Assembly: GCA_910579525.1 (NCBI GenBank)
Contig: CAJTUK010000004.1
Location: 192,112 to 256,111, forward strand
Direction: 5' to 3'
DNA length: 64,000 nt
Source: an uncultured Christensenella sp.
GTDB taxonomy: Bacteria; Bacillota; Clostridia; Christensenellales; Borkfalkiaceae
The notes under the pieces were generated by a model. It was not told the origin of the DNA. It did no database searches and saw only the letters and a list, made by a program, of their open reading frames with translations. A program made the position numbers and the translations under genes. Numbering within the stretch: the first letter of the stretch is position 1; the number at the start of each line of letters is the position of its first letter. Shown here piece after piece: positions 1 through 26,846 of this stretch.

Positions 1-140
1 AATTTTTAATCAAAATATATCTCCGCCCATATGATTACCTGATTTAACGCTAATTATTCAAAACGATAACTTTGTTGAGTACATTATAAAACCTAATTCC
101 TACAATGTCAATAGGAATTAGGTTCTTTTAAAAAATTAAA

Positions 141-1157
141 TTAACGAAGTCTTTCAAAAAAATGATTTTCGGCAAGTTCTTTTTCTATATCGTTTCCCGA
201 GCCCAAAGCGAGCAAAACCTTGGTGGTTGCCATTTCAAAACTTATATCGTATGCCGGTATGCAAGATTGCGCAAGCCCCAATGCACTACCGTAAGTCCGC
301 GCCTTGCTGTCAATTGTAGATATAACTACTTTTATGCCTAAATTTTTACAATAATTAAGAAAATTTTTGAAATTAACTTCTTTACCTGCGGTGCAAACCG
401 TCCCGCTGTGATACAGCTGAACCATAACGGCTTTAGGTTTTATTTCCGTAAAGCGGTAAAAATCAAAGTTTAAAAGTGCGTGCGCCTGAATCGTAACCAT
501 ATCCATGCACAACTTTTGAGACTTGCAAGGTTTACGTTTTTCATAAAGCTGCGCAATAGCGGGATTCAAAGGGTTTTCGTTATAAATGAATTTACCGTCA
601 AGCATCTCTCCGAAATGCACGCCCAGAATACTTTCGTATTCGCCACTGATCTGCGTTGCGGCAATAAGCCTGCTTGCAAGGTGAATTTTACAATTTTGTC
701 CGTAATTCTGAAAACTTACGAATACTCCGCCGTAATCCGCTTGATTAATAAAATCAACTGCTCCGGCAAAATTTTCCAAGCCTTTACTCCGTTCATCGTC
801 AAGCGGATAGAGCGCGGAAACGAAAACTACCGGTAATTCGATATCACAGAAAATTTGACTGAAAAGATTAGCCGTAAAACACAAAGTATCAGTGCCGTGA
901 GTTATTATAACGCCTTTATACCCGTTATTTTTAACCTTTCGCAGACAGCACGCCATAATTTCGAGATCAGAAGGCTGAATATTCTCACTCAAAATATTTA
1001 ACGGCCGATATTCGTCAAATTCAGTATCGTTACCAAAACGTCCACGGTATAATTCAAGCAAAAAACTCTTTTCTTCGTTTCGCAAATCAACCGTATCGCC
1101 ACAAACGCGCGAACCTATCGTTCCGCCCGTAAAAATAACGCAAATTCTGTTTTTCAT
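141..1157 (-). CDS. L-asparaginase family protein (type I-like)
   Basis: 338-aa ORF with the asparaginase/glutaminase signatures TGGTIGS (N-terminus) and ITHGTDTL. Lies immediately downstream of asnS. Confidence 0.75.
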   Translation of the reverse strand: MKNRICVIFTGGTIGSRVCGDTVDLRNEEKSFLLELYRGRFGNDTEFDEYRPLNILSENIQPSDLEIMACCLRKVKNNGYKGVIITHGTDTLCFTANLFSQIFCDIELPVVFVSALYPLDDERSKGLENFAGAVDFINQADYGGVFVSFQNYGQNCKIHLASRLIAATQISGEYESILGVHFGEMLDGKFIYNENPLNPAIAQLYEKRKPCKSQKLCMDMVTIQAHALLNFDFYRFTEIKPKAVMVQLYHSGTVCTAGKEVNFKNFLNYCKNLGIKVVISTIDSKARTYGSALGLAQSCIPAYDISFEMATTKVLLALGSGNDIEKELAENHFFERLR

Positions 1158-1170
1158 AAGTTTTTAAAAA

Positions 1171-2547
1171 TCAAAGACTGCCCACCGTTCTGGGATAAAG
1201 CAATGTATCGCGTATATTCTGAACTCCTGTTATATACATGAGAATTCTCTCGAATCCCAAACCGAAACCGCTGTGCGGAACGCTTCCGAATTTTCTTGTA
1301 TCAAGGTAAGAATTATAAGCGTCAAGCGGCATATTCCGTTTTTGCATTGCATTTTTAAGTTTTTCAAGGTCCGCTTCTCTTTCGCTGCAACCTATAATTT
1401 CACCGATTCCCGGCACAAGCAAATCTGTCGCGGCGACGGTCTTGCCGTCGGGATTTTGCTTCATATAAAACGCTTTTATATCGGCGGGATAGTCGGTTAC
1501 AAACACGGGTTTTTTAAAGTGCTCTTCGGTCAGATACCTCTCATGCTCCGTTTGCAAATCGCAACCCCACTCTACTGGGAACTTAAATTCTTTACCGGAT
1601 TTTTTGAGAATCTCAACCGCGTCGGAGTATTTAAGTTTAACGAAATCGCTTGAAATCACCGCATTAAGTTTTTCAATAAGCCCTTTTTCTGATCGCTCGT
1701 TAAAAAATGTGAGTTCCTCGGGGCAATTCTCTATTACGTCGCGTATAATCGATTTAATAAAATCTTCGGCTATTTCAATTATATCTTGTAAGTCGCAAAA
1801 ACACACTTCGGGTTCTATTTGCCAGAATTCGGCCGCATGCCTTGTAGTATTGCTGTGCTCCGCACGGAAAGTAGGTCCGAACGTATAAATTTTACCTAAT
1901 CCCATAGCGGCGATTTCGCCTTCTAACTGCCCCGACACCGTAAGTCCGGCCTTTGCTCCGAAAAAGTCGTTAGAAAAATATTCCGCTTCGGTTTTTTCTT
2001 TTGCATTCCAAGGTTGCGTGGTCACACGAAACATTTCTCCAGCGCCCTCGCAGTCGCTGCCCGTTATTATAGGAGTATGAACGTATTTGTAACCGTGACT
2101 GTGAAAATACTTGTGTATTGCAAATGAAAGCTCGTTTCTCACTGCAAAAACAGCCTCAAAAAAACGCGTACGCGGTCTCAAATGCGGAATTGTACGCAAA
2201 AATTCAAGTGTGTGATGCTTTTTTTGCAAAGGATAATCTTGAGGACATTCACCCAAAACAATTACATTTTTAACACTAATTTCGAAACCGTTCCGCTCTG
2301 AAGGAACAAAAATTCCCTCTGCCTTTATTGCCGTTCCCGTGGCGAAAGCCGGTTTCAACAGACTTTCGGCTACGACCCCTTTTTCAATTACAAGCTGTAA
2401 ATTTTTAAGACAAGTTCCGTCATTCAATTCTATGAAAGCTATCCCCTTCGAATCACGCCATGTTCTCACCCATCCGCAGACCGTAACGCTTTTATCTTTG
2501 TAAACTTCGGAATTCAAAAACAGTTCTCTTATGTCCGTATGTTTCAT
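1171..2547 (-). CDS. asnS: Asparagine--tRNA ligase
   Basis: 458-aa ORF. Class IIb aaRS motifs FRAEHSNTTRHAAEFWQIEPE and GFGLGFERILMY, with an N-terminal OB-type anticodon-binding region. The pattern fits AsnRS better than AspRS. Confidence 0.9.
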   Translation of the reverse strand: MKHTDIRELFLNSEVYKDKSVTVCGWVRTWRDSKGIAFIELNDGTCLKNLQLVIEKGVVAESLLKPAFATGTAIKAEGIFVPSERNGFEISVKNVIVLGECPQDYPLQKKHHTLEFLRTIPHLRPRTRFFEAVFAVRNELSFAIHKYFHSHGYKYVHTPIITGSDCEGAGEMFRVTTQPWNAKEKTEAEYFSNDFFGAKAGLTVSGQLEGEIAAMGLGKIYTFGPTFRAEHSNTTRHAAEFWQIEPEVCFCDLQDIIEIAEDFIKSIIRDVIENCPEELTFFNERSEKGLIEKLNAVISSDFVKLKYSDAVEILKKSGKEFKFPVEWGCDLQTEHERYLTEEHFKKPVFVTDYPADIKAFYMKQNPDGKTVAATDLLVPGIGEIIGCSEREADLEKLKNAMQKRNMPLDAYNSYLDTRKFGSVPHSGFGLGFERILMYITGVQNIRDTLLYPRTVGSL

Positions 2548-2564
2548 ATTTACCTCTTTAAATG

Positions 2565-2594
2565 CAAAAATACGGACCGCCGTAAGGCAGTCCG
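2565..2594 (-). terminator. Rho-independent terminator after rpmF
   Basis: On the minus-strand RNA: 9-bp stem CGGACUGCC/GGCGGUCCG (one G-U), UUAC loop, then UAUUUUUG, a few nt after the rpmF stop. Confidence 0.6.
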
Positions 2595-2602
2595 CAGATT
2601 TG

Positions 2603-2794
2603 TTAATTTGCTTTCTTTTCGTCCTTGGACACTACTTCGACTTTATCGTAGTAGCCGCAATTCCCGCAAACTTTATGAGCCTCTTTCAATTCATGACAAT
2701 GAGGACATTCAACGAGCGTAGGAGCCGTTGCCTTGTAGTTTGCAAACCTTTTATTAGTTCTGCTTTTGGACTGTTTGCCCTTGGGTACTGCCAT
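2603..2794 (-). CDS. rpmF: 50S ribosomal protein L32
   Basis: 63-aa ORF starting MAVPKGKQSKSRTNKR, with zinc-ribbon cysteines CPHC...CGNCG. Conserved DUF177-rpmF gene pair. Confidence 0.95.
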   Translation of the reverse strand: MAVPKGKQSKSRTNKRFANYKATAPTLVECPHCHELKEAHKVCGNCGYYDKVEVVSKDEKKAN

Positions 2795-2816
2795 CTTTTA
2801 CACCTCTTTTTATAAT

Positions 2817-3221
2817 TTATTTAGGTACGTCAATACCCGTGCAGTCTTCTTTACATAGTAAAACGCTGGGCTGACTTATAAGTATTGCATCATCCACGGC
2901 GGTTTTAAGATTAATTCTTATGCCGTCGTAAAAATAATTATCGCCGTCATGCTCGGGAACAAAAAGTATATCCGACGTGAATTCGGTAAGCTTTTGAGCA
3001 TCTTTTAAGCAATAAGAGCAGTGTCCCGAAATTCTGTAACTTACCGTGAGTCTTACCCCCACGCAATCGTCATCATAAATTTCGTATTCACCCGAAACCT
3101 TAACCGCACCCGAAATCTCACTCAACGGCACCAAACAAAGATTATTTTCAGGCAAATATTCAAACTGAAAGTTCCCCGTGTATTTTTTTAGCGCGTTAAG
3201 CTTTTTTACTTCAATTTCCAT
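2817..3221 (-). CDS. YceD/DUF177 family protein
   Basis: 134-aa acidic ORF directly upstream of rpmF, the classic DUF177-rpmF arrangement. C-terminal Cys residues typical of the family. Confidence 0.75.
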   Translation of the reverse strand: MEIEVKKLNALKKYTGNFQFEYLPENNLCLVPLSEISGAVKVSGEYEIYDDDCVGVRLTVSYRISGHCSYCLKDAQKLTEFTSDILFVPEHDGDNYFYDGIRINLKTAVDDAILISQPSVLLCKEDCTGIDVPK

Positions 3222-3239
3222 AATGTAGCTGACCTTAAG

Positions 3240-3269
3240 ATTATAATATAGTTAAAAAACCTTTGTCAA
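3240..3269 (-). promoter_or_regulatory. Sigma-70-type promoter for the DUF177-rpmF operon
   Basis: Minus strand reads TTGACA, 18-nt spacer, TATAAT, ending about 20 nt upstream of the DUF177 start codon. Confidence 0.5.
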
Positions 3270-3296
3270 CTCATTTTTACGGCGCAAAAATAAATT

Positions 3297-4493
3297 TTAT
3301 AAAAGTTCAGCCGTTTCCCTGGCGATAACGAGTTCTTCATTCGTCGGAATTACTAAAACTTTAACTTTGGAATTGTTTTTGGAAATCTCGCGAATATTCC
3401 CGTCGTTTTTAGCTTTATTCGCCCGTGAATTGAACTTAACGCCAATGAATTCGAGCCCTTTGCACACATTTTCACGCACATAAGGCGTATTTTCACCTAT
3501 TCCGGCGGTAAACACAATACAGTCAAGTCCGCCCATAGCCGCAGCGTAGGCGCCAACGAATTTTTTAACCTGATAAGAGAACATATCCAGCGCAAGAACG
3601 CATCTTTCATTCCCTTTCTTCATTCCCGATTCGAGATCTCTGAAATCGCTCGAAACTCCCGAGATTCCGGCAACACCGCACTTTTTATTGAGATATGTAA
3701 CAGTGTCGGCGTGAGAAAGCCCTTTTTTCCTTGCAAGGAATTCAACCGCAGAGGCGTCTATGTCGCCTGAACGCGTTCCCATAAGCACGCCGGCAAGCGG
3801 AGTAAATCCCATAGAGGTATCAACGCACTTGCCGCCGTCCACAGCGGAAATAGAAGAGCCGTTGCCAAGATGGCATGTTACTATTTTCAAATCTTCGGGA
3901 TTTTTTCCAAGGTATTTTGCCGCTTCGGCAGATACAAACTTATGACTGGTACCATGTGCGCCGTATTTTCTTACTCCGAATTCCTTATAATCGTTATAAT
4001 CTATACCGTAAAGGTACGCCTTGGGAGGCATAGTTGCATGGAACGAAGAATCAAACACGAGCGCCATGGGCGTACCGGGCATAACTTCCATACATGCCCT
4101 TAATCCGGTGGCTGCCGCAGGATTGTGCAAAGGAGCAAGTTCAAACGTCTTTTCTTCAAGAGTTTTGAGGACTTCGGGCGTGACAAGCGTGGTCTTTTTA
4201 AAATATTCACCGCTCGCAACTATTCTGTGTCCCACAGCGTCTATTTCTTTCATTGACTTAATAACGCCGATTTCTTCGTCCAAAAGCGCGTCAAGTACCA
4301 GTTTTATAGCTTCTTTATGGTCGGGCATGCTCTGTTTATAAATTTTCTCGCCGCCGTTCCCTTTAGCTTTTAATAGCGAACCGCGTATTCCTATGCGTTC
4401 GCATCCGCCCTTTGCCAATACTTTTTCAGTTTCCATATCAATAAGCTGATATTTGAGCGAAGAACTACCTGCGTTTACTACTAAAATTTTCAT
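3297..4493 (-). CDS. ackA: Acetate kinase
   Basis: 398-aa ORF. N-terminus MKILVVNAGSSSLKYQL, plus HRIVASGE, GAHGTSH and TCHLGNGSS motifs of acetate/propionate kinases. Confidence 0.95.
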   Translation of the reverse strand: MKILVVNAGSSSLKYQLIDMETEKVLAKGGCERIGIRGSLLKAKGNGGEKIYKQSMPDHKEAIKLVLDALLDEEIGVIKSMKEIDAVGHRIVASGEYFKKTTLVTPEVLKTLEEKTFELAPLHNPAAATGLRACMEVMPGTPMALVFDSSFHATMPPKAYLYGIDYNDYKEFGVRKYGAHGTSHKFVSAEAAKYLGKNPEDLKIVTCHLGNGSSISAVDGGKCVDTSMGFTPLAGVLMGTRSGDIDASAVEFLARKKGLSHADTVTYLNKKCGVAGISGVSSDFRDLESGMKKGNERCVLALDMFSYQVKKFVGAYAAAMGGLDCIVFTAGIGENTPYVRENVCKGLEFIGVKFNSRANKAKNDGNIREISKNNSKVKVLVIPTNEELVIARETAELL

Positions 4494-4512
4494 ATTTATT
4501 CTCCCTTAATTT

Positions 4513-5517
4513 TTATTCTGCCTGTAATGCGGTAACAGCAACGGTTGCCACGATATCTTCAACATTGCAACCGCGAGATAAATCGTTCAAAGGTTTTGCA
4601 AATCCCTGACAAATGGGACCTACCGCCATATACCCGCCAAAGCGTTGCGCTATTTTGTAACCGATGTTACCCGCGTTAATATTGGGGAAAACGAAAACGT
4701 TTGCATGCCCCGCAACTTTAGAACCGGGAGCTTTGAGTTGCCCGACTTCGGGAGCAACCGCCGCGTCAAACTGGAATTCGCCGTCAAGCGCGAGATTAGG
4801 AGCCGCCGCTTTTGCAAGAACCGTAGCTTGCTGAACTTTAGGAACTGTTTGCGTGAATTTATCGTCGTTTCCGCTACCTTTCGTCGAAAACGAAAGCATA
4901 GCGACTCTCGGTTCGATTCCTGCTATATCTTTTGCCGTTTTTGCCGAAGAAACGGCTATATCGGCGAGTTGTTCCGCGGTAGGTTCGATATTAATCGCGC
5001 AGTCGCCGAAAACGGCAACACCGTCAGGGTTATAAGGATTTGATTTGTCGGGAGCAATCATAATAAAACAACTCGAAACGGTTTTGATTCCTGGAGCGGT
5101 TTTAACAACTTGTAATCCGGGGCGCAGAGTGTTCGCCGTAGAATGGCACGCGCCCGAAACGTAGCCGTCCACATCGCCAGCTTTAAGCATAAGCGCACCG
5201 AACATCGTCCTGTCTTTAGCTTGTTCGCTTGCCTGCTCCTCCGTCATACCTTTAGACTTTCTGGCTTCGTAAAGTATTTTCGCATACTCCGCGGTTTTGG
5301 AAGAAGTAAGCGGATCCACAAGCGTCACTCCCGTCAAATCCACATCAGGCGCAACTTTTTTACATTCATTCTCGTTACCGATAAGCACGATTTTGGCAAT
5401 ACCTTCTTTAGTTATGCGCGCCGCAGCTTCCACCACGCGCTTGTCCTCCCCCTCGCAAAGAACTATAGTCTTTTTTCTGGCGGCGGCTTTCATTTTTATT
5501 TCTTCCAATAATGACAT
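4513..5517 (-). CDS. pta: Phosphate acetyltransferase
   Basis: 334-aa ORF with full-length similarity to short-form Pta (GDxxRVVEAA, SGAxHSTAxT, DCAINIxP, NIGYK motifs). Forms a pta-ackA operon. Confidence 0.93.
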   Translation of the reverse strand: MSLLEEIKMKAAARKKTIVLCEGEDKRVVEAAARITKEGIAKIVLIGNENECKKVAPDVDLTGVTLVDPLTSSKTAEYAKILYEARKSKGMTEEQASEQAKDRTMFGALMLKAGDVDGYVSGACHSTANTLRPGLQVVKTAPGIKTVSSCFIMIAPDKSNPYNPDGVAVFGDCAINIEPTAEQLADIAVSSAKTAKDIAGIEPRVAMLSFSTKGSGNDDKFTQTVPKVQQATVLAKAAAPNLALDGEFQFDAAVAPEVGQLKAPGSKVAGHANVFVFPNINAGNIGYKIAQRFGGYMAVGPICQGFAKPLNDLSRGCNVEDIVATVAVTALQAE

Positions 5518-5592
5518 TCCGTTTTCTCCTTAAAACACTTTATTTTTAACAAAAACCGTTATATAATTATAAAAACGGTTGCAAACGCAATC

Positions 5593-5621
5593 ATTATATA
5601 CCGATTTTTTTTGATTGTAAA
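5593..5621 (-). promoter_or_regulatory. Sigma-70-type promoter of pta-ackA
   Basis: Minus strand reads TTTACA, 17-nt spacer, TATAAT, about 75 nt upstream of the pta ATG. Shows that host DNA extends at least to ~5625. Confidence 0.5.
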
Positions 5622-5783
5622 GGGCTAAAATGAAAATTTGCGCAATAATTTGTGAATTAAAACTAAAATCACCTTGCAACATTTATAGGCACTAAACATC
5701 ACTTGTACAGTAGGATTGAATAGTAAAAAATCACTTATTATCACCTACAAACACCAACCATTTCTTGCCGATACTTGTGCGGC

Positions 5784-5853: not shown

Positions 5854-5882
5854 TTGACAAGAAAATATTTCTTTGCTATACT
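5854..5882 (+). promoter_or_regulatory. Sigma-70-type promoter (extended -10)
   Basis: TTGACA (5854-5859), 17-nt spacer, TGcTATACT (-10 at 5877-5882). An AGGAG RBS and the ATG at 5933 follow. Confidence 0.6.
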
Positions 5883-5932: not shown

Positions 5933-6610
5933 ATGACATTGGCACTCATTGTGCTTGTGGTCTTCTTGATTGTGTGGTTCAACCAATCCGCAAAGATCAA
6001 GGGCAACAAACACACTCACAGGAAGCGCACCATCACAAATGTTCCGTTGCAAGATGAGCTTGGTGCAAAAAACTTCAAAAAAATAATTGACGACTTAAGC
6101 GCTCTGCCATCGTCTAATACGTTGTCTGGTGATAGCTTAATGGATGCAATCGAAAGCTTGTATCAAGAGTACGACCTGCCGGACAGACGCACACCAGAAC
6201 AGAGAACTACGGACAGGGCAAAGTATTTGGCGACTATCTCATCTGCAAGAGAGGATGAAGAATATCCTATGGATGACTCAAAACTCCCTCTTATTGATAG
6301 AATTTGGCATTACCCTTTTGATGCGCCGCTTATAGACCGCCCAGACCTTCTCGTTGGCATTCCAAACACAATCATTGAGGTTGACGGCATTAAATATAAA
6401 TATGACCACCGCGGCATTCCTACGAACTTGTATCAGTCGATACCCGCTAAGCTCGTCGGAGACTTAAAGGTTCTTCTTACAATGCGAGAACTTGACGCGG
6501 CTGGATACAAATATAGTTGGAACAGACAAGCAGCAAATTGGCAGCGCGCCGAAATAGCTGCTGAGCAATATAAAGAAACGAAGAAAAAATACCCGTGGCT
6601 TTATAGATAA
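5933..6610 (+). CDS. Membrane-anchored hypothetical protein (prophage-edge gene)
   Basis: 225-aa ORF with a good RBS. N-terminal hydrophobic helix TLALIVLVVFLIVWF followed by a basic stretch. No motif recognised. Confidence 0.6.
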   Translation: MTLALIVLVVFLIVWFNQSAKIKGNKHTHRKRTITNVPLQDELGAKNFKKIIDDLSALPSSNTLSGDSLMDAIESLYQEYDLPDRRTPEQRTTDRAKYLATISSAREDEEYPMDDSKLPLIDRIWHYPFDAPLIDRPDLLVGIPNTIIEVDGIKYKYDHRGIPTNLYQSIPAKLVGDLKVLLTMRELDAAGYKYSWNRQAANWQRAEIAAEQYKETKKKYPWLYR

Positions 6611-6942: not shown

Positions 6943-6971
6943 TTGACATTTTCTTTTTACTATGCTATTAT
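6943..6971 (+). promoter_or_regulatory. Early rightward sigma-70-type promoter (extended -10)
   Basis: TTGACA (6943-6948), 17-nt spacer, TGcTATTAT (-10 at 6966-6971). Confidence 0.6.
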
Positions 6972-6989
6972 AAAACATATTTAGACACA
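6966..6989 (+). promoter_or_regulatory. Conserved element copy A (TATTATAAAACATATTTAGACACA)
   Basis: Exact 24-mer also present at 10102-10125. Contains the core ACATATTTAGACAC shared by four sites. Confidence 0.6.
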
Positions 6990-7039
6990 TAATAGGATAA
7001 GTGCCGCCATTTTACAGATGCGGCTTACTTAATAAATAA

Positions 7040-7060
7040 TATACGACATATTTAGACACA
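7040..7060 (+). promoter_or_regulatory. Conserved element copy B (TATACGACATATTTAGACACA)
   Basis: The 20-mer TATACGACATATTTAGACAC is identical to the minus-strand copy at 61614-61633. Ends 12 nt before the ATG at 7073. Confidence 0.6.
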
Positions 7061-7072
7061 ACGGAGAGAACT

Positions 7073-7159
7073 ATGATTTACTTTATGTTAGGTCTTATGT
7101 GTGGGGCTTTGCTTGCCCTACTATACATAGATGGCGATCAAAGACCGCCAAGATATTAA
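7073..7159 (+). CDS. Small hydrophobic peptide (28 aa)
   Basis: ATG at 7073 preceded by a GGAGAG SD. Sequence MIYFMLGLMCGALLALLYIDGDQRPPRY. A better gene model than the 7099-7311 track ORF, which has no SD. Confidence 0.4.
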   Translation: MIYFMLGLMCGALLALLYIDGDQRPPRY

Positions 7160-7173
7160 ATACGGAGGGAACT

Positions 7174-7311
7174 ATGTTAACCACTTGCATCATCATTGCT
7201 GCTTGGACAACAGGTATGCCACTTTGGGCATCAATCACCATGACGGTAATTGCCAGCATACGATTTGTATTCAAATGTATCGGCACGGGCATTAAGCTAA
7301 GCGACAATTAA
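7174..7311 (+). CDS. Small hydrophobic protein (45 aa)
   Basis: ATG at 7174 preceded by a GGAGGGA SD. Sequence MLTTCIIIAAWTTGMPLWASITMTVIASIRFVF..., predicted to have two TM segments. Confidence 0.45.
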   Translation: MLTTCIIIAAWTTGMPLWASITMTVIASIRFVFKCIGTGIKLSDN

Positions 7312-7348
7312 ATTTGAATAAAACTGATATTTTATTGAGGTAAAAAAT

Positions 7349-7603
7349 ATGGACAAAAAGTTAACTTGCCCATTTTGTGGCAAAGAAGCAAGAATTGTAG
7401 TCTGTGACGACGAAGGCAACATTCATCCAGACGAGTACGAAGACGATCCTTGGAGCGGTTTAGGCTATATGTTAGTCCACGAAGAACAAGACGACGTGAA
7501 ATGTCCCATTGCCACAGAGCCAGACGAGCCGTTAGGTCGTTTAATTTATGACTCTCGTGAGGAAGCCGCTGCTATGTGGGACACAAGGGTTCCAACACCA
7601 TAA
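7349..7603 (+). CDS. Lar-family restriction-alleviation-like zinc-ribbon protein
   Basis: 84 aa. N-terminal CPFCG knuckle, a second KCP element, and a C-terminal SREEAAAMWDTR resembling the Lar-family xEAIxAWNRR tail. Confidence 0.5.
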   Translation: MDKKLTCPFCGKEARIVVCDDEGNIHPDEYEDDPWSGLGYMLVHEEQDDVKCPIATEPDEPLGRLIYDSREEAAAMWDTRVPTP

Positions 7604-7622
7604 AGAGCGAGGTACACAATCA

Positions 7623-8057
7623 ATGGATAAACAGGAATTATTAAATAAAAAGTCCGAGCTTGAAAAAGAACTTAGCCAGATCAACAAAGAACTGTGGGAT
7701 TACGACGTCAAACAGCTCGCAGAACAATATAAAGATAAATTCTCTTGTGAGTTCTGCCGCTACAATGCAGTACGCGGGTTCTCTGGTGACGGATGGCACA
7801 ATATGTGCTGCGCTGATAACTGCACTTGTTGCCACAGTTACTGCGACAAGTACAAACCAGATAACGCAGCGACACTTAAAATCAAACAATCTGGCAAGCA
7901 AGACGCTTTATTAAGACCGAAGAGCACGAACGGCTACGGTCAAATCGGCGAAGACGACAAGGACGCACTCGAAGAGCTTGGAGCAAGAATATTTGCCGAT
8001 GAGCCAACAGGGTACACAATGAAAATGCTTGACTTATATTTGGAGAGCTGTAAATGA
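7623..8057 (+). CDS. Hypothetical coiled-coil / Cys-rich protein
   Basis: Taken from the in-frame ATG at 7623, because the track start at 7548 overlaps the previous gene. Cys cluster CEFCRY...CCADNCTCCHSYC. Confidence 0.5.
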   Translation: MDKQELLNKKSELEKELSQINKELWDYDVKQLAEQYKDKFSCEFCRYNAVRGFSGDGWHNMCCADNCTCCHSYCDKYKPDNAATLKIKQSGKQDALLRPKSTNGYGQIGEDDKDALEELGARIFADEPTGYTMKMLDLYLESCK

Positions 8058-8590
8058 GCAACACACTCGTAGTTAACCTCTTCGGTGTTCCGGGGGCTGG
8101 CAAAAGCACTGGCGCCGCATACATCTTTTCCTGCATCAAAATGGCAGGAGTTAATGCAGAACTCATTACTGAGTATGCAAAAGACAAAGTTTGGGAACGG
8201 AACGATGAAGCGTTCCGCAACCAAGCATACATATTTGGAGAACAATCTTATAGGATAAGCCGCTGTGCTGGTAAGGTAGATGTTATCGTAACCGACAGTC
8301 CCCTTCCTTTAAGTGTAATGTATAACAACGATGAACGACTTACGGAAAACTTTAACAAAGCAGTAATGGACGTATTCAACACCTACGACAATCTTAACTA
8401 CCTCCTGCTGAGAGTTAAGCCGTACAATCCCGTTGGGCGTAAGCAGACTGAGGCTGAGTCTGACGCGCTTGGCGCATCGGTAATCTCACTGCTCAAAGAT
8501 AGAAACATCCCCTACCATTCCATCGATGGCGATGTTAAAGGGTACGATGAGATCGTTCGAGAAATTATTTCAAGAGTAAACGGAGAGTAA
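8054..8590 (+). CDS. P-loop NTPase / kinase-like protein
   Basis: 178 aa. Walker A GVPGAGKST near the N-terminus, and a Walker-B-like VIVTDSP. Translationally coupled (ATGA overlap) to the upstream gene and placed directly before the Thg1-like gene. Confidence 0.65.
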   Translation: MSNTLVVNLFGVPGAGKSTGAAYIFSCIKMAGVNAELITEYAKDKVWERNDEAFRNQAYIFGEQSYRISRCAGKVDVIVTDSPLPLSVMYNNDERLTENFNKAVMDVFNTYDNLNYLLLRVKPYNPVGRKQTEAESDALGASVISLLKDRNIPYHSIDGDVKGYDEIVREIISRVNGE

Positions 8591-8596
8591 AATTAT

Positions 8597-9445
8597 ATGG
8601 AGAACAATTCGCTTGGCGACAGAATGAAAGAGTATGAAAATATATCAAGAATATATTTGACTAAGCGTAGCCCTGTTATCATTCGTATCGATGGCAAAGC
8701 ATTCCACAGCTTTACAAAAGGGTTCATTCGCCCTTTTGATAAAATGCTTATGGAAACTATGGCTGAAACGGCGAAGTTCCTCGCCGAAAACATTTCTGGA
8801 TGCAAGCTTGCATATACACAGTCGGACGAAATCAGCCTACTTCTCACGGATTATGACACAATTAAGACGCAACCGTGGTTCGAGAACAATCTTCAGAAAC
8901 TTGTAAGTATTGCGGCAAGTATGGCAACCTTGCAGTTCAACAGAATATTCACTACCAAGGTTGGCGACATTAAACGCACGAAACATCACCTTGTTTTTAA
9001 GGACGTCAACGAAGAGAGTGATGAAAGCAGCATAAAGGATCTTACGAGATATTGTGATTCTCTTTCAAAATCACAACAGGCAGGAGCAATGTTCGATGCA
9101 AGAGCTTTTATACTACCAAAGGAAGAAGTTGTTAACTACTTTATATGGCGTCAGCAAGATGCAACGCGCAATTCAATTCTTATGGTTGCTCAATCGTGTT
9201 TTTCCCACAAAGAAATGCAAGGGATTAAGTGCGACGCCCTGCAAGAAAAGTTATTTAGCGAACGTAACATCAACTGGAACGATTACACAATACCTCAAAA
9301 GCGCGGTACTTGTATTAGAAGACAAACAACTTTAAGAAATGATGTAGAGCGTCACGAATGGATTATCGACACTAATATACCGATATTCACACAAGATAAA
9401 GATTATATAAATAAACTTGTATTTGGAGAACAGACAAATGAATGA
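8597..9445 (+). CDS. tRNA-His guanylyltransferase (Thg1)-like protein, 3'-5' nucleotidyltransferase
   Basis: 282 aa. Thg1-family pattern GDRMKEYE, RIDGKAFHSFTKGF, PFD, AYTQSDEISLLL. Confidence 0.8.
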   Translation: MENNSLGDRMKEYENISRIYLTKRSPVIIRIDGKAFHSFTKGFIRPFDKMLMETMAETAKFLAENISGCKLAYTQSDEISLLLTDYDTIKTQPWFENNLQKLVSIAASMATLQFNRIFTTKVGDIKRTKHHLVFKDVNEESDESSIKDLTRYCDSLSKSQQAGAMFDARAFILPKEEVVNYFIWRQQDATRNSILMVAQSCFSHKEMQGIKCDALQEKLFSERNINWNDYTIPQKRGTCIRRQTTLRNDVERHEWIIDTNIPIFTQDKDYINKLVFGEQTNE

Positions 9446-9857
9446 CATCACAGAATTTAGAGGAAACAACTACTACCTCAGTAACTTCTACGAAAGAGAT
9501 GTGAGCTGCTTTGGTTTTACATTTAAGAATAACGAGGCGGCGTTTCATGCAATGAAGTGCCCTGAAAGAGCAAGCGAATTTTGCGACCTTGACCCATCAG
9601 CGGCAAAGAGACTTGGACGACAAGTTAAGCTCCGCCCAGATTGGGAGCAAGTCAAAGAAGACATCATGTACGAGGTATGTCGAGCAAAGTTTATGCAGCA
9701 TTCAGACTTAAAAGAGCAACTCCTCTCCACCGGTTCCGTACAACTCGTTGAGGGTAACGACTGGAACGACAGAGAATGGGGCGTGTGCAACGGAGAGGGC
9801 AAGAACAAGCTTGGCAAAATATTGATGAGAATCAGAGGAGAACTTGCAAATGCGTAG
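9438..9857 (+). CDS. NADAR (YbiA/DUF1768) family protein
   Basis: Taken from the ATG at 9438 (GGAGAA SD). FRGNNYYLSNFY, NNEAAFHAMK and DREWGV resemble the NADAR signature. Confidence 0.75.
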   Translation: MNDITEFRGNNYYLSNFYERDVSCFGFTFKNNEAAFHAMKCPERASEFCDLDPSAAKRLGRQVKLRPDWEQVKEDIMYEVCRAKFMQHSDLKEQLLSTGSVQLVEGNDWNDREWGVCNGEGKNKLGKILMRIRGELANA

Positions 9858-10080
9858 TACGAAAAAAGTAACCGCAAAAGACGCTGGCTGGGATCCGCGG
9901 CTGGATAGCTTCAATACTTCATTGAAGCGCTCAGCGCGGCGGCAACTCAACCATAAACTCAGACAACGGCAGAAGCGCGAACTCCGTAATATGTCGGAAG
10001 TTTGTGTTTGTTGCGGTGCTCCACTCGGTGACGCTGAACTCGGAACAATGATGTGCAGCGAGTGTAGCAAAGAACAATAA
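9850..10080 (+). CDS. Small basic zinc-ribbon protein
   Basis: ATG at 9850. Arg/Lys-rich N-terminal half and a C-terminal CVCCG...CSEC. Confidence 0.45.
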   Translation: MRSTKKVTAKDAGWDPRLDSFNTSLKRSARRQLNHKLRQRQKRELRNMSEVCVCCGAPLGDAELGTMMCSECSKEQ

Positions 10081-10101
10081 CTTCTACATCTTTATTTTTT
10101 A

Positions 10102-10125
10102 TATTATAAAACATATTTAGACACA
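10102..10125 (+). promoter_or_regulatory. Conserved element copy C (TATTATAAAACATATTTAGACACA)
   Basis: Exact copy of 6966-6989. Ends 9 nt before the ATG at 10135. No recognisable -35 upstream. Confidence 0.6.
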
Positions 10126-10134
10126 CGGAGACAT

Positions 10135-10707
10135 ATGACAAACAAAGAAACATTCCTATCTATTTGCAGAGAAGACATTAAGCGCGACGGCATTGAAGAC
10201 CTCTTAAAGTGGCTTGAAGACAGCGACTTCTTCGCTGCACCGGCAAGTACAAGATTCCACGGAAACTATGAAGGCGGCTTGTGCGAACACTCGCTGAACG
10301 TACATCGAGAACTCACACGCTTAAACGACATCTACCAGCTTGGTTACTCAAAAGAGACCATTGCGGTCACCGCCCTCTTCCATGATCTCTGCAAGGTTAA
10401 CTACTATAAGCGCGGAACACGGAACGTCAAAGACGAAAACGGTAACTGGGTTGTCAAAGAAGTCTATGAAGTTGACGAAAGAGTTCCACTCGGGCACGGC
10501 GAAAAGAGCTGCATCATTTTGCAGTGGTACATAAAGCTTTCGCTTGAAGAATTGCTCGCTATACGCTGGCATATGGGCGGTTTTGACTCCGCCACTAAGG
10601 GCGGCGATTACAGCCTGAGCAAGGCTCAGGACAACTCAAAGCTCGTAACACTCATCAGTGTTGCGGACTTGATAGCGTCAAATCTTTTCGAGGAGACTAA
10701 AAAATAA
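10135..10707 (+). CDS. HD-domain phosphohydrolase
   Basis: 190 aa. STRFHGNYEGGLCEHSLNV and ALFHDLCK give the H...HD metal-binding pattern (YhaM-like HD). Confidence 0.75.
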   Translation: MTNKETFLSICREDIKRDGIEDLLKWLEDSDFFAAPASTRFHGNYEGGLCEHSLNVHRELTRLNDIYQLGYSKETIAVTALFHDLCKVNYYKRGTRNVKDENGNWVVKEVYEVDERVPLGHGEKSCIILQWYIKLSLEELLAIRWHMGGFDSATKGGDYSLSKAQDNSKLVTLISVADLIASNLFEETKK

Positions 10708-11012
10708 TGCCGCCCGATTTACATAGATTTACCCCAACCGGTGCTCGAATATATGTACGCTCCGAAGATGGCAGACAAGTTGAACTTAATCTTGCTCACG
10801 TCCAAGAGATACATTTTGACCGCGGCGCCGACCACGATTATATGGCAAATGCCTTTAGGTATTTTGACGCAGCAGCTGAGCAAGTCGGTATCACGCTAAA
10901 GGGCTTACAGCTTGCCGTAAAACTCTCTACACCGGATGGCGAAGAGAAAGACGTATCCTACGAAGATTGGGAGCGCATGATACTGAACGGCATCCATAAC
11001 GAAGACAAATAA
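10707..11012 (+). CDS. Hypothetical protein
   Basis: 101-aa ORF, start coupled to the HD gene stop. No motif recognised. Confidence 0.5.
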   Translation: MPPDLHRFTPTGARIYVRSEDGRQVELNLAHVQEIHFDRGADHDYMANAFRYFDAAAEQVGITLKGLQLAVKLSTPDGEEKDVSYEDWERMILNGIHNEDK

Positions 11013-11027
11013 TTAAAGGAGGCAAAA

Positions 11028-11777
11028 ATGCCAGATACAGAAAAGTTAAACATTCACCAAAAGATTTTGAAGATTGCCGACGCTGCCGGGGTTCTTCAAA
11101 AGACCAAGTCGGGCTACAACTACAAGTACGTGCCCGAAGAAGAGATTCAGGCGAAAGTAACTGCTTGTATGCAAAAGTATGGAGTTATGCTCTACCACTC
11201 CATCGTTCAAGGCACGCTTCGTGTTCAACCTTATACATACGAAAAATACGACGCGAAACTCAAAGCAAACAAGACAGTCAACGAGTTCGTCGTCACCGCC
11301 GACTCTGTGTACAAATGGGTCAACGCCGAGACCCCCGGCGAGTACATCGAAGTACCTTGGGCTCTCGTAGGGCAAATGGAAGACGCATCTCAAGCGTTCG
11401 GCGCGGCAGAAACATACTGCAACAGATACTTCCTTATGAAGTCGTTACAGCTTGCAACATCCGAAGCAGACCCCGACGAGTACAGAAGCAAACAAAAGGA
11501 AGCCGAAGGTTATGATCAAGAAAAAGAGCAAAAGGCTGCGGCGGAAGAACTTGCAAAAGCCGTTAAGGAAATCTTAGACAAGGGCTCCGAGCTCATCAAA
11601 AAAGGTTTCGCAAAAGAAGAAGTTATGGCAGTTGTAGGAAAATACAACAACGGCAACTCCAACCCTTCGAGCATCAAGTCGATTGAGATTTGCGCGGCGG
11701 TTATGGCAGAATTTGCGGAGCTCGAAAAGTCAAAAGCAAGCAAAAAGTCAACCACACCAAAAGGAGAAACGAAATGA
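11028..11777 (+). CDS. ERF-family single-strand annealing protein
   Basis: 249 aa. NIHQKILKI...KSGYNYKYVPEEEI...FGAAETYCNRYFLMK...SEADPDE matches the ERF layout. Sits before SSB and a nuclease. Confidence 0.7.
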   Translation: MPDTEKLNIHQKILKIADAAGVLQKTKSGYNYKYVPEEEIQAKVTACMQKYGVMLYHSIVQGTLRVQPYTYEKYDAKLKANKTVNEFVVTADSVYKWVNAETPGEYIEVPWALVGQMEDASQAFGAAETYCNRYFLMKSLQLATSEADPDEYRSKQKEAEGYDQEKEQKAAAEELAKAVKEILDKGSELIKKGFAKEEVMAVVGKYNNGNSNPSSIKSIEICAAVMAEFAELEKSKASKKSTTPKGETK

Positions 11778-12172
11778 TTTTTAACGACAACAAAATCTAC
11801 GCAAAAGTATGGAAAGTAACGCCGTCCGAGAACGGCAAGTACGTTGACCTTCAAATTACCACATCGGAAAAGGACAATGACGGCAACTACGTAAACTCAT
11901 CGTGGTTCCCTCGCGTTATCGGCAAAGCGGTTAACACCTTGAAAGGTTTGAAGCGCGAAGACCGCATCATCATTACGAAGTCGAAGTTCACCAACGAACG
12001 CAGAGACACCGACGACGGCAAGAAGTCCTTCTTCCGCTTCCTCATCCTCGAAGCAGAAATCGAAGGCAGCGAAAGGTCAGGCGGCAACACTCCCGCGACG
12101 GAAACCAATAAGAAGAATAAGCCGAAAGAGGAACCTGCTCCTGCGGCGGCTGAGGACGCTTGTCCTTGGTAA
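11774..12172 (+). CDS. Single-stranded DNA-binding protein (OB-fold)
   Basis: Taken from the ATG at 11774 (ATGA overlap with erf). About 100 aa of OB-like core, a Pro/Ala/Lys linker, and an acidic-aromatic tail AAEDACPW. Confidence 0.55.
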   Translation: MIFNDNKIYAKVWKVTPSENGKYVDLQITTSEKDNDGNYVNSSWFPRVIGKAVNTLKGLKREDRIIITKSKFTNERRDTDDGKKSFFRFLILEAEIEGSERSGGNTPATETNKKNKPKEEPAPAAAEDACPW

Positions 12173-12915
12173 GCGGAGAGCCAAGAAAGGAACGGTATAG
12201 TTTTTCTAAGTTATCAGCATTCCACACCTGCAAGTACGGGTACAAGATGACATACATAGACCATAAGAAAGGCATCGGAAATTGCTTCAGTTCTTATGGT
12301 CTTGAAGTTCACTCCATTATGGAGAGATACGCAAAGGGCGAACTTACCCTTTGGGATTTGGTAGGCATATATGAGTGGGAATTTGACGCGGCGGTGCCCG
12401 AAAAGTTCCCTTCTACCAAGTACTGCAAAGATATGCGAAAGCTCTACTACGATCAAGGGCTTGAGTACCTGAAAAACTTTGCAGGATACGATGACAGAAA
12501 AATATTAGAAGTTGAATCACAGTTCGATTACGAAATTGACGACTGGACTTTTAACGGCGTAATCGACTTAGTTTTTGAAGACAAAGACGGAAAGCTTATT
12601 ATACAAGACTATAAATCCAAGAGTTCTTTCAAGAACAAGCGCGAACAAGCGGAATATGCACGACAGCTTTATCTGTACGCATTATTTGTGAAGAAAAAAT
12701 ACGGTAGATATCCAGATATCCTTCGCTTTATGATGTTCAGAAAAAATATGTCGATTGACATACCGTTCGACGAGTCCAGCTTAAACGAAGCTTTAAGTTG
12801 GGCAAGAGAGACGGTGAAAGAAATCCGTGAGTGTTGGGATTTCACACCGACGTGTGACGAGTTCTTTAGCGAGAACTTGTGCAATCATCGCGAGTATTGC
12901 GAAAGCAAAATATAG
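12160..12915 (+). CDS. PD-(D/E)XK nuclease, Cas4/RecB-like with Cys cluster
   Basis: 251 aa. N-terminal YSFSKLSAFHTC, a core GVIDLVFED...IQDYKS (D...D/ExK), and a C-terminal CWDFTPTCDEFFSENLCNHREYC (4-Cys Fe-S type). The TTG start at 12160 is uncertain. Confidence 0.7.
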   Translation: MSLVSGEPRKERYSFSKLSAFHTCKYGYKMTYIDHKKGIGNCFSSYGLEVHSIMERYAKGELTLWDLVGIYEWEFDAAVPEKFPSTKYCKDMRKLYYDQGLEYLKNFAGYDDRKILEVESQFDYEIDDWTFNGVIDLVFEDKDGKLIIQDYKSKSSFKNKREQAEYARQLYLYALFVKKKYGRYPDILRFMMFRKNMSIDIPFDESSLNEALSWARETVKEIRECWDFTPTCDEFFSENLCNHREYCESKI

Positions 12916-12933
12916 CATTGGAGGTATAGGCTT

Positions 12934-17800: not shown

Positions 17801-18110
17801 GTCGATGAAACAACAGATACAGTACAGTATGGACATCCTCGGTTACGCTGACGTTGTAACCAACCGTGAAGAAGATCGCAGAAGACTTCTCATAACAGAT
17901 GTCGTCCCCCTCTCAAGCGCGGGCGGTGAAGTGTGGTCTTACAGAGTTGGAACACGAAGCCTCGGCAGTGGTAAGACAGCTCGGCTCACAGTTAAGGCAA
18001 ACATATATGATAAGAAACCCATTAAGGCTGGCGACATTATATATGCTGCCGACCTCTACAAAAATCAAACGGGCTATTGGTATCTTATAGCCTACAACAA
18101 GGAGGCTTAA
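14895..18110 (+). CDS. DNA polymerase III alpha-like (C-family) replicase with N-terminal PHP domain
   Basis: 1071 aa. N-terminal PHP motifs (HRHAMYT, SAEHG), and length and layout typical of DnaE-type polymerases. Start overlaps the primase stop (TAATG). Confidence 0.8.
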   Translation: MKVFQNYHRHAMYTNVRISDSAVTPKDYAERAKALGHGILSSAEHGWQGNYFETVRLAKEYGLKPLIGAEAYWVKDRAEKDRTNCHIFLGAKNERGRQALNDVLSEANLTGFYGQPRLDVPLLLSLPKDDLIVTTACIAYWRYENIEEITAMLAKHFGKNFFLEVQYHNTESQRELNKRILRLHNELKIPLIMGCDSHYIGADQGQTRTDFLVSKGLTYPDEEGWFLDYPDGDTAYERFANQCVLSHSEINDAMDNTGVFLEVEEYDSPIFNTDIKMPSLFPTLSQEEKNEKYKSLVWSGWEEYKKSVPEDKWALYESEIEKEIKTVEDTHMADYFIDNYHIIRKGKENGGWLTKSGRGSAVSFITNMLLGFTEVDRIAAKVHMYPERFMSATRILQSGSLPDIDFNCAPVEPFARAQQEILGEDHAYPMVAYGTMQKSAAWKLYAKSQGISFEIANAVSEQIKKYEAAVKHAPEDEKDDINVFDYIDKDFHEIYEKSKDYLGLVTSWSIAPCSYLLYEGSIRKEIGLVKVKDHLCCLMDGHWAEACHFLKNDLLKVSVVDLIYRAYHRIGIEPPTVTELLKMCPPDDKAWEIYEKGCTLGINQCEQTGTASRVTKYKPKNISELGAFVAAIRPGFKSMYKTFEERKPFAYGVKAFDELIQTDEMPSSFLLYQEQEMAALNYAGIDMSDCYTAIKNIAKKRADKVLAYKEKFINGFSQVMIEDEHKTPEEAASMSQELWQIIEDSSRYSFNASHSYCVALDSLYGAWLKAHHPLEFYEVLLTLAEQKGDKDKMNALKEEAESYFNIKFPPFRFGQDNRSIKADVENNLIVNSLSAIKGFSLSVGAALYDCSKNNFTSFVDVLAWLDKKALKASKVRPLITIDYFQQFGNINELLSILDLWELLKQGQAKSVRKDKVTSIVVQRILSYNCSTTNKDGTESASYRMENEQTTMKCLYDFEQYIKQHPMPSPSMKQQIQYSMDILGYADVVTNREEDRRRLLITDVVPLSSAGGEVWSYRVGTRSLGSGKTARLTVKANIYDKKPIKAGDIIYAADLYKNQTGYWYLIAYNKEA

Positions 18111-18122
18111 TGAAAGAAAAAT

Positions 18123-18908: not shown

Positions 18909-19084
18909 CAAAAAGAATGCGCGTTACTCATTTAATCTTCCCATTTACTGGGTCGGTGAGCAAAGGCATACTTGGTGCCTTGGGTTGACATCCTTTATTG
19001 CGAATTGGTGATTAAGATATCCGTAAAGCTCTGATTCAAATAGCGTCGTAAAGTCTACTGCGGCACGGGAAGCCATCGGAGCAT

Positions 19085-19116
19085 CCTTAATAAATTTGAG
19101 AAAAAATTTATTAAGG
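19085..19116 (+). promoter_or_regulatory. Perfect 13-bp hairpin overlapping the SD of the 19124 gene
   Basis: CCTTAATAAATTT, 6-nt loop, AAATTTATTAAGG. The 3' arm includes the AAGG of the AAGGAG SD (19113-19118). Confidence 0.5.
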
Positions 19117-19123
19117 AGATTTT

Positions 19124-19858: not shown

Positions 19859-19869
19859 GGAGATACATA

Positions 19870-20791: not shown

Positions 20792-20803
20792 GGAGAATAC
20801 ATA

Positions 20804-24084: not shown

Positions 24085-24091
24085 GGTACGT

Positions 24092-24592: not shown

Positions 24593-24598
24593 TACATA

Positions 24599-25084: not shown

Positions 25085-25191
25085 CGCTTTACAGCGTCGA
25101 TAGCCTCTGACGATAGCTTCTTCAAGGAACTCGATAAAGTGTCACAGCGGCTAAATGGCGCAGCCAGACTGGCGATTAAGGAGCATTTCTT

Positions 25192-25665: not shown

Positions 25666-25677
25666 AGGAGAACCACT

Positions 25678-25992: not shown

Positions 25993-25999
25993 AAAATAA

Positions 26000-26035: not shown

Positions 26036-26054
26036 TGTTGAACGATAAGCTTTA

Positions 26055-26832: not shown

Positions 26833-26846
26833 CTGTCGCCTCGCGA

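Follow-up and report, generated by a model that had tools for sequence, protein, structure and literature searches.

A conserved directional element of about 22 bp at the lytic transcription units of a Christensenellaceae prophage encoding a YonO-family RNA polymerase

The 64,000-nucleotide stretch analysed here (the window) belongs to contig CAJTUK010000004.1 of an uncultured Christensenella sp. and, after host DNA at its left end, reads from its gene content as a prophage of Christensenellaceae whose late module is SPbeta-like and which has a gene for a YonO-family RNA polymerase. Common to all lytic transcription units of this prophage is a repeated element of about 22 bp, ATTATA-M-R-ACATATTTAGACAC, with an A/T-rich, G-poor tract upstream. 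The element is a real, directional promoter or operator module of the lytic programme, and the two explanations proposed in an earlier note on this DNA, a promoter of a phage polymerase or the operator of a repressor, are still the leading ones. The features of the window are the following (ORF, open reading frame).

1-5700: host DNA with pta, ackA, rpmF (L32), yceD, a class II tRNA synthetase gene and an asparaginase gene
6943-6971, + strand: sigma-A-type promoter overlapping copy A of the element, TTGACA-17-TATTAT with an upstream TG (TGc-TATTAT), 11 of 12 consensus matches
6967-6988, + strand: copy A, ATTATAAA followed by the core ACATATTTAGACAC, which starts 3 nt after the -10 hexamer
6998-7031, + strand: weak hairpin between copies A and B, -11.4 kcal/mol, z = -1.6
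7038-7059, + strand: copy B, AATATACG followed by the core, then GGAGAG at 7063-7068 and the ATG at 7073 of a 29-aa membrane ORF
7073-26624, + strand: early/replication array of 19.5 kb, served by copies A, B and C
10103-10124, + strand: copy C, ATTATAAA followed by the core, then GGAGA and the ATG at 10135 of an HD-domain gene
26847-61521, - strand: late array of 35 kb, served by copy D only
61579-61591, - strand: box D2, CGTATAGGAAAGA, purine-rich, single copy, just downstream of copy D
61585-61634, - strand: inverted repeat or hairpin with copy D in its 5' arm, CTATACGACA...TGTCGTATAG plus ATTTAGA/TCTAAAT
61614-61635, - strand: copy D, ACTATACG followed by the core, heading the late array, with the polymerase gene on one side and the YonJ-like metallophosphoesterase gene on the other
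61649-61671, + strand: hairpin after the polymerase gene, with a T-run on the + strand only
61700-64000, - strand: YonO-family RNA polymerase gene, the 3' 766 codons, continuing past the window end (933 aa in full in loci L022/L081)

The early array is devoted to nucleotide metabolism and replication (Thg1, NADAR, HD, Erf, exonuclease, primase-helicase, Pol III alpha, NrdD/G and others). The late array begins at 61521 with the YonJ-like metallophosphoesterase gene, followed by genes for HU, a tyrosine recombinase, a YonG-like protein, terminase and portal, and then by YonD/YonB-like and tail genes; the Pfam families YonJ_CC, YonG_N/C, YonD_N and YonB were found in it. The order yonV-like gene, small ORF, polymerase gene and, further on, yonJ-like, HU, yonG-like and terminase genes is the same as in SPbeta.

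The 14-mer core occurs exactly four times in the window, at 6975-6988 (+), 7046-7059 (+), 10111-10124 (+) and 61614-61627 (-). No further copies appear at one or two mismatches (0.62 expected at up to two), and four copies were reached in none of 100 dinucleotide-preserving shuffles. Because a search at up to three mismatches adds background only (13 sites found, 7.0 expected), the core is without a degenerate halo. The longer identities reported earlier, a 24-mer at 6966-6989 and 10102-10125 and a 20-mer at 7040-7059 (+) and 61614-61633 (-), are correct, as is the statement that the four copies are aimed at downstream genes; all of them are intergenic, within the 4.6% of the prophage that is non-coding. 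Copy B, said to end 12 nt before the ATG at 7073, has a core that ends 13 nt before it. The description of the copies as lying at operon starts holds in so far as a conserved directional element marks transcription-unit starts, and copy D does head the leftward late array; copy C sits in a 54-nt gap inside the rightward array and heads no isolated operon. The early array has no copies besides A, B and C, and the late array has no copy besides D and no convincing host promoter. No copy lies inside a window gene in any orientation. The large gaps at 12916-13170, 18909-19123 and 26625-26846 are likewise free of copies; the first of them is coding, being the N-terminus of the primase(-helicase) gene, whose start in the ORF list is too late because a zinc-binding primase N-terminus is visible there, and the second is non-coding, structured-looking and without annotation.

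Copies A and B stand in tandem, 71 bp apart. Only copy A comes with a -35 hexamer that precedes a TAnnnT -10 by 16-18 bp, as had been noted; B, C and D are without one. The sigma-A promoter at A was kept in L002, L004, L020, L072, L077 and L078. The hairpin described between A and B is present at about 6998-7031 and is weak: its stem is kept with different loops in L004, a terminator scan does not call it, and it is possibly an attenuator for transcripts from A. At copy C, relatives keep the element exact and differ in the flanks. The sequence TAGACA within the core was tried as a -35 hexamer and rejected: within the window it would suit D alone, and that on paper; L026 does not conserve it; and at B and C the start codon follows so early that such a role is ruled out.

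Copy D is located 73 nt past the stop codon of the polymerase gene and 93 nt upstream of the YonJ-like gene. The hairpin that includes it (-15.7 kcal/mol, z = -4.7; none of 200 shuffles folds as well) is conserved: compensatory changes preserve it in the L027 clade (z = -4.6), and L026 keeps the outer stem only. Box D2 is kept in all 12 polymerase clades or loci aligned, including L031 and L053, which lack the element, and has no other copy in the window beyond chance. Rfam matched nothing at the element or in the leaders. Since the T-run of the hairpin at 61649-61671 is on the + strand, this hairpin would stop transcription antisense to the polymerase gene and not the polymerase transcript; it would allow transcripts of the polymerase operon to read through into the late array.

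Relatives were gathered with the pattern TATAMRACATATTTAGACAC in IMG/VR (21 stretches), with the pattern TATANNACATATTTAGACAC in a genome collection (16 stretches; the element was exact in 15 stretches of Clostridia genomes), and by a protein search with the polymerase, unbiased toward the element, which gave 41 loci of 45-100% identity. Sites A, B, C and D recur in relatives at the same places with the core exact and the flanks diverged, so that the element is far from absent in related phages, and this conservation at fixed positions excludes chance or a mobile repeat. Relatives also carry further sites.

Site E: within the yonV-like ORF, some 670 nt before the start codon of the polymerase gene
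Site F: 1.3 kb upstream of A
Site G: on the opposite strand, upstream of yonV
Sites past G, in L090 and L068: P2, 1874 and 2298

Thirty contexts with flanks less than 70% identical revealed a single contiguous, asymmetric conserved block from -8 to +15, A(-8) T T A T A M R, the core and W(+15), with an A/T-rich, G-poor sequence upstream; the TATA part of this consensus is partly inflated, as both pattern searches required it. The 30 contexts have no -35 information and no TG or extended -10. A purine occupies -1 in 29 of them, and A is found at +1, +3 and +5. Among 44 unique contexts, 14 (about nine different genes) show a Shine-Dalgarno sequence and a start codon 10-24 nt past the core, the intragenic E copies being excluded from this count. 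In many copies the Shine-Dalgarno sequence begins 2-6 nt past the core, which places the start of transcription at or before the core 3' end (before +15). In all promoter readings the start falls inside the element, most plausibly between -1 and +5 of the core or else around +9 to +11.

The element changes together with the polymerase. Downstream of the polymerase gene (site D) the element is exact at 70-100% polymerase identity, CCATATTTAGACAC at 67%, ACACTTTTAGACA(A/G) at 60-68% and ACACTTGTGGATGG at 62-65%, and every locus with a polymerase at least 60% identical has the element or a variant there. Copies within one genome co-vary, D and G being ACACTTTTAGACAA in L029 and CCATATTTAGACAC in L027. 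With a polymerase 52% identical, L061 contains seven copies of the related motif ATA(A/T)CAAATTATAAC, four of which abut GGAGG-ATG, three of these before consecutive small genes. A de novo search for 10-12-mer motifs in the clades with 45-56% polymerase identity gave a clear analogous motif in L061 only, the rest being noise, tRNA fragments and tandem repeats.

Copy E represents the sole class of intragenic copies in relatives; it is gene-oriented and under nucleotide-level selection. It encodes N-I-F-R-H, and four of its five codons are invariant in nine distinct sequences that are 64-100% identical over a 50-aa segment, while the other degenerate codons for invariant residues of that segment vary in 19 of 19 cases (Fisher p = 4.7e-4). 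In SPbeta YonV the region aligned with this segment is a linker that is not conserved. Synonymous sites drift freely in a similar-looking coding 14-mer at another place (T-Y-L-D-T).

A TAnnAT hexamer lies 3 nt upstream of all four window copies. The A at the second -10 position is missing at E, at F, at the copy after P2 and at D in L029, L030 and L034, all of which still point downstream; at D in L074 the final T is missing instead.

The polymerase was identified on several grounds. The protein matched phrog_8308 (E = 1e-103), and in tblastn it matched 'RNA-dependent RNA polymerase' annotations in Enterocloster, Thomasclavelia and Psychrobacillus phages as well as a 'hypothetical' protein of the Bacillus phage Spbetavirus BUCT082. 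In BLASTP the 933-aa polymerase aligned with SPbeta YonO over 459 aa (E = 4e-7, 19% identical), with the motifs DMDSD/DNDGD (the catalytic Asp triad), RSPH/RSPH and SAGSSR/SAGQIR in register, and the BUCT082 protein bridges the two (E = 5e-17 and 5e-26). YonO-type enzymes are single-chain relatives of the cellular multisubunit RNA polymerases and have no sigma factor. The suggestion of a single-subunit, T7-type enzyme thus gives way to a YonO-family two-barrel polymerase, multisubunit-like and single-chain; for a Pol-I-fold T7-like polymerase, no Pfam RNA_pol or PF00940 match was found in the 760-aa protein or among the other scanned window proteins.

The sequence recognised by YonO and its need for helpers were left open in the paper that characterised the enzyme; the YonO-dependent late start of SPbeta, upstream of yonK-yonJ, was mapped there and its determinants were left undefined (PMC5467207). 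In the literature that could be searched, no promoter consensus for YonO-family polymerases was found. The non-coding yonN-yonK region, including this promoter (P_YonO), is 95% identical in nucleotides over 1.5 kb between BUCT082 (L062 7243-8962) and SPbeta (L064 14153-15835), and the YonO-like polymerases of the two phages are 25% identical only; it follows that recognition either is very tolerant of polymerase divergence or is not by the polymerase alone.

That the element is a phage-specific promoter of some kind, one read through a phage sigma-like factor included, is about an even bet. The likeliest single reading, a promoter of the prophage's own YonO-family single-chain polymerase in a T7-like strategy, is proposed tentatively and falls somewhat short of an even chance. 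Under this proposal the host sigma-A polymerase would first transcribe the operon of the yonV-like gene, a 62-aa ORF and the polymerase gene from a near-consensus promoter outside the window, and would also start at A. The phage polymerase would then initiate inside the element, where the geometry given above sets the start limit at the core 3' end, and would thereby drive the early/replication array from A, B and C and the 35-kb late array from D. From the copy inside the yonV-like ORF it would drive its own gene, in a positive feedback, and at the reverse copies in the spacers of host promoters the phage polymerase, or a repressor sharing the site, would shut these promoters off. The whole scheme, in which the 22-bp element is a self-sufficient promoter used early, late and autogenously, with intragenic positive feedback and antisense spacer copies that switch off host-dependent promoters, is a possibility that stays clearly below an even chance.

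Several observations were counted in favour of the polymerase. The four window copies are exact, intergenic and co-oriented; in relatives the element remains exact despite diverged flanks, and its copies follow the divergence of the polymerase. The prophage encodes the YonO homologue together with YonV/J/G/D/B-like genes in SPbeta order, and D takes the position of the YonO-dependent late start of SPbeta. Copy E is under synonymous constraint in a linker that is not conserved in YonV, copies without a usable -10 are still gene-oriented, and forward copies are without a -35 or an extended -10. Furthermore, the element is identical despite a swapped helix-turn-helix in a neighbouring GerE/sigma-r4-like regulator and where the gene for a Phd-like protein is missing, and no homologue of MrpR, the master repressor of SPbeta, was found in the roughly 85 kb examined. 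Strongly conserved motifs also mark the promoters of other single-chain two-barrel phage polymerases, such as that of P23-45.

Other observations weigh the opposite way. The G promoter, on the other strand, reads TTGACT-t-GTGTCTAAATATGT-tt-TATAAT, with the reverse core as its 17-nt spacer and 11 of 12 sigma-A matches, and is aimed at the polymerase operon; in L027, L029, L034, L005 and L074 it is TTGACA-17-TATAAT, with each clade's core variant as the spacer. P2, in L090/L068, is a duplicate of the G module, including the upstream A-rich region, and again has the reverse core in a 17-nt spacer; a forward copy follows 67 nt after it, and a leftward promoter at P2 would fire antisense into the preceding gene. 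Reverse copies thus fill the spacers of two near-consensus sigma-A promoters with a shared upstream region, where they look like operators, and all three strong host-type lytic promoters (A, G and P2) overlap the core, as a lysogeny repressor would require. Because the hexamer upstream of the window copies resembles a -10, and because its A at position 2 and T at position 6 recur in 10 of 17 contexts not selected for TATA, the host polymerase could also use them. Box D2 could be the true late promoter or start site instead of the element, and in SPbeta YonO was reported to use one late promoter only (PMC5467207).

These points lead to a reading modelled on SPBRE, the site bound by MrpR/YopR, the master repressor of SPbeta (PMC10516654). 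As reconstructed here from the promoter regions listed as MrpR peaks in chromatin affinity precipitation sequencing (ChAP-seq), SPBRE is CAAATACAAATAATATGTAT, with 0-2 mismatches at six of seven promoter-region sites and four at yopM. It is gene-oriented and, at yopM, yopV and yonX, is followed at a distance of 3-6 nt by a Shine-Dalgarno sequence of the GGAG type and an ATG. Two copies spaced by 64 bp stand in tandem at yonX, and another copy is the spacer of TAGACA-17-TATAAT at P_yonP, the promoter of the yonO operon. SPBRE thus resembles the element in near-invariance, co-orientation, Shine-Dalgarno adjacency, tandem pairing and the spacer copy of the polymerase operon, and for this reason invariance, orientation, Shine-Dalgarno adjacency and tandem pairing do not on their own discriminate a polymerase promoter from a promoter/operator.

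By analogy, the core would be the site of a master lysogeny repressor, an analogue of MrpR, over every lytic promoter of the host polymerase, within the spacers of G and P2 and over the +1 of A. Forward copies would be weak sigma-A promoters without a -35 (tATTAT, 3 nt, core) with the operator across the start; copies that lack a -10, namely E, D in some clades and the one that follows P2, would be auxiliary operators or roadblocks; and the YonO-like polymerase would use a separate late promoter only, box D2 and/or the D hairpin, as in SPbeta. This, too, is a serious possibility, although one distinctly less than even. It gains from the G spacer that tracks each clade's core variant, from the second such module at P2 with its forward copy, from the overlap of copy A with a strong sigma-A promoter, and from the similar construction of SPBRE, a proven MrpR site whose reverse complement has ACATATT in common with the core. 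The core is moreover the only motif common to A, G and P2; strong early promoters in a temperate phage call for operators; and D2 stands apart as a single-copy box with wider conservation.

A repressor itself is less easily found. In tblastn with YopR, no MrpR/YopR homologue appeared in the window or in any fetched locus, which cover the prophage in part, and beyond G in L090 there are more copies of the element (P2, 1874 and 2298) and no recognisable repressor. No other conserved DNA-binding candidate is available. The Phd-like protein of 63/67 aa that the earlier note put forward as a binder fails on distribution, as it is absent beside the element in L067 and L070 and rearranged in L065 with the core identical there; the GerE-like protein fails on variability, its helix-turn-helix differing while the element is constant; and the 330-aa recombinase, considered as an MrpR-like binder, keeps R, HxxR and Y and resembles XerC/XerA, not YopR. 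Unlike SPBRE, the element also heads the late array, and is at D in every clade with at least 60% polymerase identity. Copies outside spacers all point at the downstream gene, even without a usable -10, which an orientation-free operator does not predict, and forward copies have neither a -35 nor an extended -10. Immunity operators usually diversify, yet the element is invariant across polymerase clades that are 67-100% identical and across several host families. The L061 motif abuts GGAGG, with no room for a sigma-A start downstream of a -10. The polymerase promoter and the repressor site explain different subsets of the evidence best and are compatible with each other; they would coexist if a repressor had evolved to bind the promoter of the polymerase.

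The spacer copies also bear on a signal at the RNA level, in which the transcribed core of 5' leaders would be a translation enhancer, the site of a translational repressor or a processing site. The gene-oriented core 2-6 nt upstream of Shine-Dalgarno sequences at many genes and the conserved hairpin around copy D, with its compensatory changes, would agree with it. The reverse copies at G and P2, however, follow the same sequence variants in promoter spacers that are not transcribed in sense, and the reading is disfavoured on that account. Conservation also reaches into the upstream A/T-rich TATA-like block, copy E is in a coding region, D is about 90 nt from a start codon, the core itself is predicted to be unstructured and no Rfam family matched. 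A role of this kind is very improbable.

The polymerase operon and its surroundings show additional features. The leader of the yonV-like/polymerase operon (L082 3950-4256; L055 7710-7978) is about 290 nt long, is conserved between clades and has no Rfam match; just before the Shine-Dalgarno sequence it contains a strong intrinsic terminator, TGCAACCCCCAGGGTTGCA plus a T-run, which suggests that polymerase expression is under attenuation or antitermination control. A recurrent layout of host-type promoter, hairpin or terminator and forward copy, before the first gene, was seen as A, weak hairpin and B; as P2, small hairpin with T-run and the 1874 copy; and as G, the leader of about 290 nt with its strong terminator just before yonV, and copy E. 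From this layout we infer that host transcripts may be attenuated and that a second system may start downstream of the attenuators; cooperative operators fit the layout too. To the left of G (L082 2900-3925; L055 6900-7640), about 1 kb of non-coding DNA with short direct repeats GCTTACTATATAAGAGAGCTTATTA has the same architecture in two clades; it includes a long tract that is G-rich on the + strand and thus C/A-rich on the leftward transcript, and may be a large non-coding RNA or a replication/packaging region. In L090, two element copies enclose a GC-rich, structured-looking leader of about 420 nt (1880-2290); the operon downstream of it encodes, among others, a DUF2828/DUF7788 protein of 611 aa (L090 4720-6555).

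A 231-251-aa protein encoded left of G, with a C-terminal GerE/sigma-region-4-like helix-turn-helix, raises another alternative, in which a phage sigma-like factor would redirect the host core polymerase and read the element as a -10-only promoter. The candidate -10 would be, for example, CATATTTA, like sporulation-sigma -10 boxes; T4 gp55 reads TATAAATA. The absence of a -35 from the element fits such a factor, the protein has its own sigma-A promoter and weak matches to Sigma70_r4_2, GerE and sigma-factor PHROGs, and a SigK-like sigma factor is present in the Enterocloster phage PMBT24, which is distantly related and has a YonO-like polymerase. These matches are nevertheless below the curated cut-offs, no region 2 was detected in the protein, and LuxR-type regulators match it best in the PDB. 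Prophages with identical elements differ in the helix-turn-helix, no homologue of the PMBT24 sigma factor exists in the window, and no sigma domain was found in any early window protein scanned. The alternative is accordingly unlikely. In the regulator itself (L082 2127-2882, - strand; L081 2172-2867, - strand), the N-terminal two-thirds are nearly identical and the C-terminal helix-turn-helix is replaced, in otherwise near-identical prophages, which looks like an immunity or specificity swap. A 17-mer repeat of PMBT24, TTCAATTCGTAAAGTA, was rejected as uninformative, as it forms inverted pairs around small cassettes and is not promoter-like.

Elsewhere in the window, the junction between host and prophage lies at about 5.7-5.9 kb, adjoining pta-ackA. 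The gene with which the prophage opens (5933-6610) codes for 225 aa with a membrane helix at the N-terminus; a sigma-A promoter of its own precedes it at 5854-5882 (11 of 12 matches), and lysogens probably express it. A reverse-transcriptase gene (27721-28839, - strand), the likely source of an RVT_1 match that was not individually assigned, occupies the distal end of the late array, and an Rfam RT-2 RNA (28829-29050; 130 bits, E = 6e-30) directly precedes it. The pair (27721-29050, - strand) looks like a retron-like cassette, or one of a reverse transcriptase with its associated non-coding RNA, and is possibly a defence moron. The tyrosine recombinase (58984-59976, - strand; 330 aa), between the HU and YonG-like genes, has its catalytic R, HxxR and Y intact and is found in all close relatives; as a position in the late array is unusual for a prophage integrase, it may be a Xer-like resolvase. 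A DNA search of INPHARED gave no close phage relatives, only matches to the Thg1 gene. Exact-pattern matches in species-representative genomes were nearly all in metagenome-assembled genomes of Christensenellaceae or other gut Clostridia, and the prophage family is widespread, its HU protein alone being indexed in 3123 blocks of the assembly collection.

If the element is the promoter of the phage polymerase, it would provide the first promoter consensus for the YonO family, with a defined 22-bp substrate. The natural variants ACATATTTAGACAC, ACACTTTTAGACAA and CAAATTATAAC, which co-vary with polymerase divergence, could serve as a tool for studying sigma-independent promoter recognition, and the system could be the basis for orthogonal expression in Clostridia. 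If it is a repressor site, the SPBRE/MrpR logic would extend from Bacillus to abundant prophages of gut Christensenellaceae, with one operator controlling early, late and polymerase genes. With either reading, the element marks every lytic transcription unit of a widespread prophage family.

Compared with SPBRE, the element occurs in the same kind of phage, with a YonO-type polymerase and YonV/J/G/D/B-like genes, and is likewise a near-invariant, asymmetric sequence of about 20 bp at many operon starts, gene-oriented and often a few nucleotides before a Shine-Dalgarno sequence. Both have a tandem pair at a similar distance (about 64 bp there, 71 bp for A and B) and one copy in the 17-nt sigma-A spacer of the polymerase operon, and they have the heptamer ACATATT in common, in reverse complement. 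The remaining sequence differs; most copies here are inverted relative to SPBRE, with the -10-like hexamer upstream of the core and not downstream, and there is a copy at the head of the late operon and another inside an ORF, with no MrpR homologue in the available sequence.

P_YonO and site D both lie in the interval from the polymerase gene to the gene for YonJ or its like, each heading a single late operon of great length, and the polymerases are homologous. In SPbeta such a start exists only once, and a long region of non-coding RNA comes after it (the yonN-yonK gap of 1.7 kb), whereas the element is also at early units. In the primer-extension window of SPbeta (L064 15551-15358, - strand) the best element match was 8 of 14, TATCATTCTGACAC, which is not significant, nor is a loose D2 match there; the two polymerases are 19% identical. 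The sequence AACATATT, once taken for the element at the mapped SPbeta start, is a coincidence, as the published primer sequences put the start about 400 nt away.

The promoters of T7 and SP6 are similar in being asymmetric sequences of about 22-23 bp in near-identical copies that span the start, with an A/T-rich block upstream, a Shine-Dalgarno sequence soon after the core and very long polycistronic units; the polymerase here differs in not being of the Pol-I fold and in having no PF00940 match. Since it is not T7-like, the ATACGAC heptamer common to B, D and the T7 consensus, and TATAGGGAGA-like strings, were treated as coincidence and not as T7 kinship. In the crAss-like phage phi14:2 a conserved middle-promoter motif is host sigma-dependent and the starts of the phage polymerase itself have no common motif, so that conservation alone does not identify the polymerase. 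For the Thermus phage P23-45 (gp96/gp64), strongly conserved motifs upstream of mapped starts co-occur with the phage polymerase in related phages. The kinship of the P23-45 and phi14:2 polymerases with YonO is only distant, and their motifs are not those seen here. Repeated phage promoters and operators are of known kinds; new here are the sequence and the phage lineage, the use of one element at early, late and polymerase units, the ORF-embedded copy under synonymous constraint, and the antisense copies that form the spacers of host promoters.

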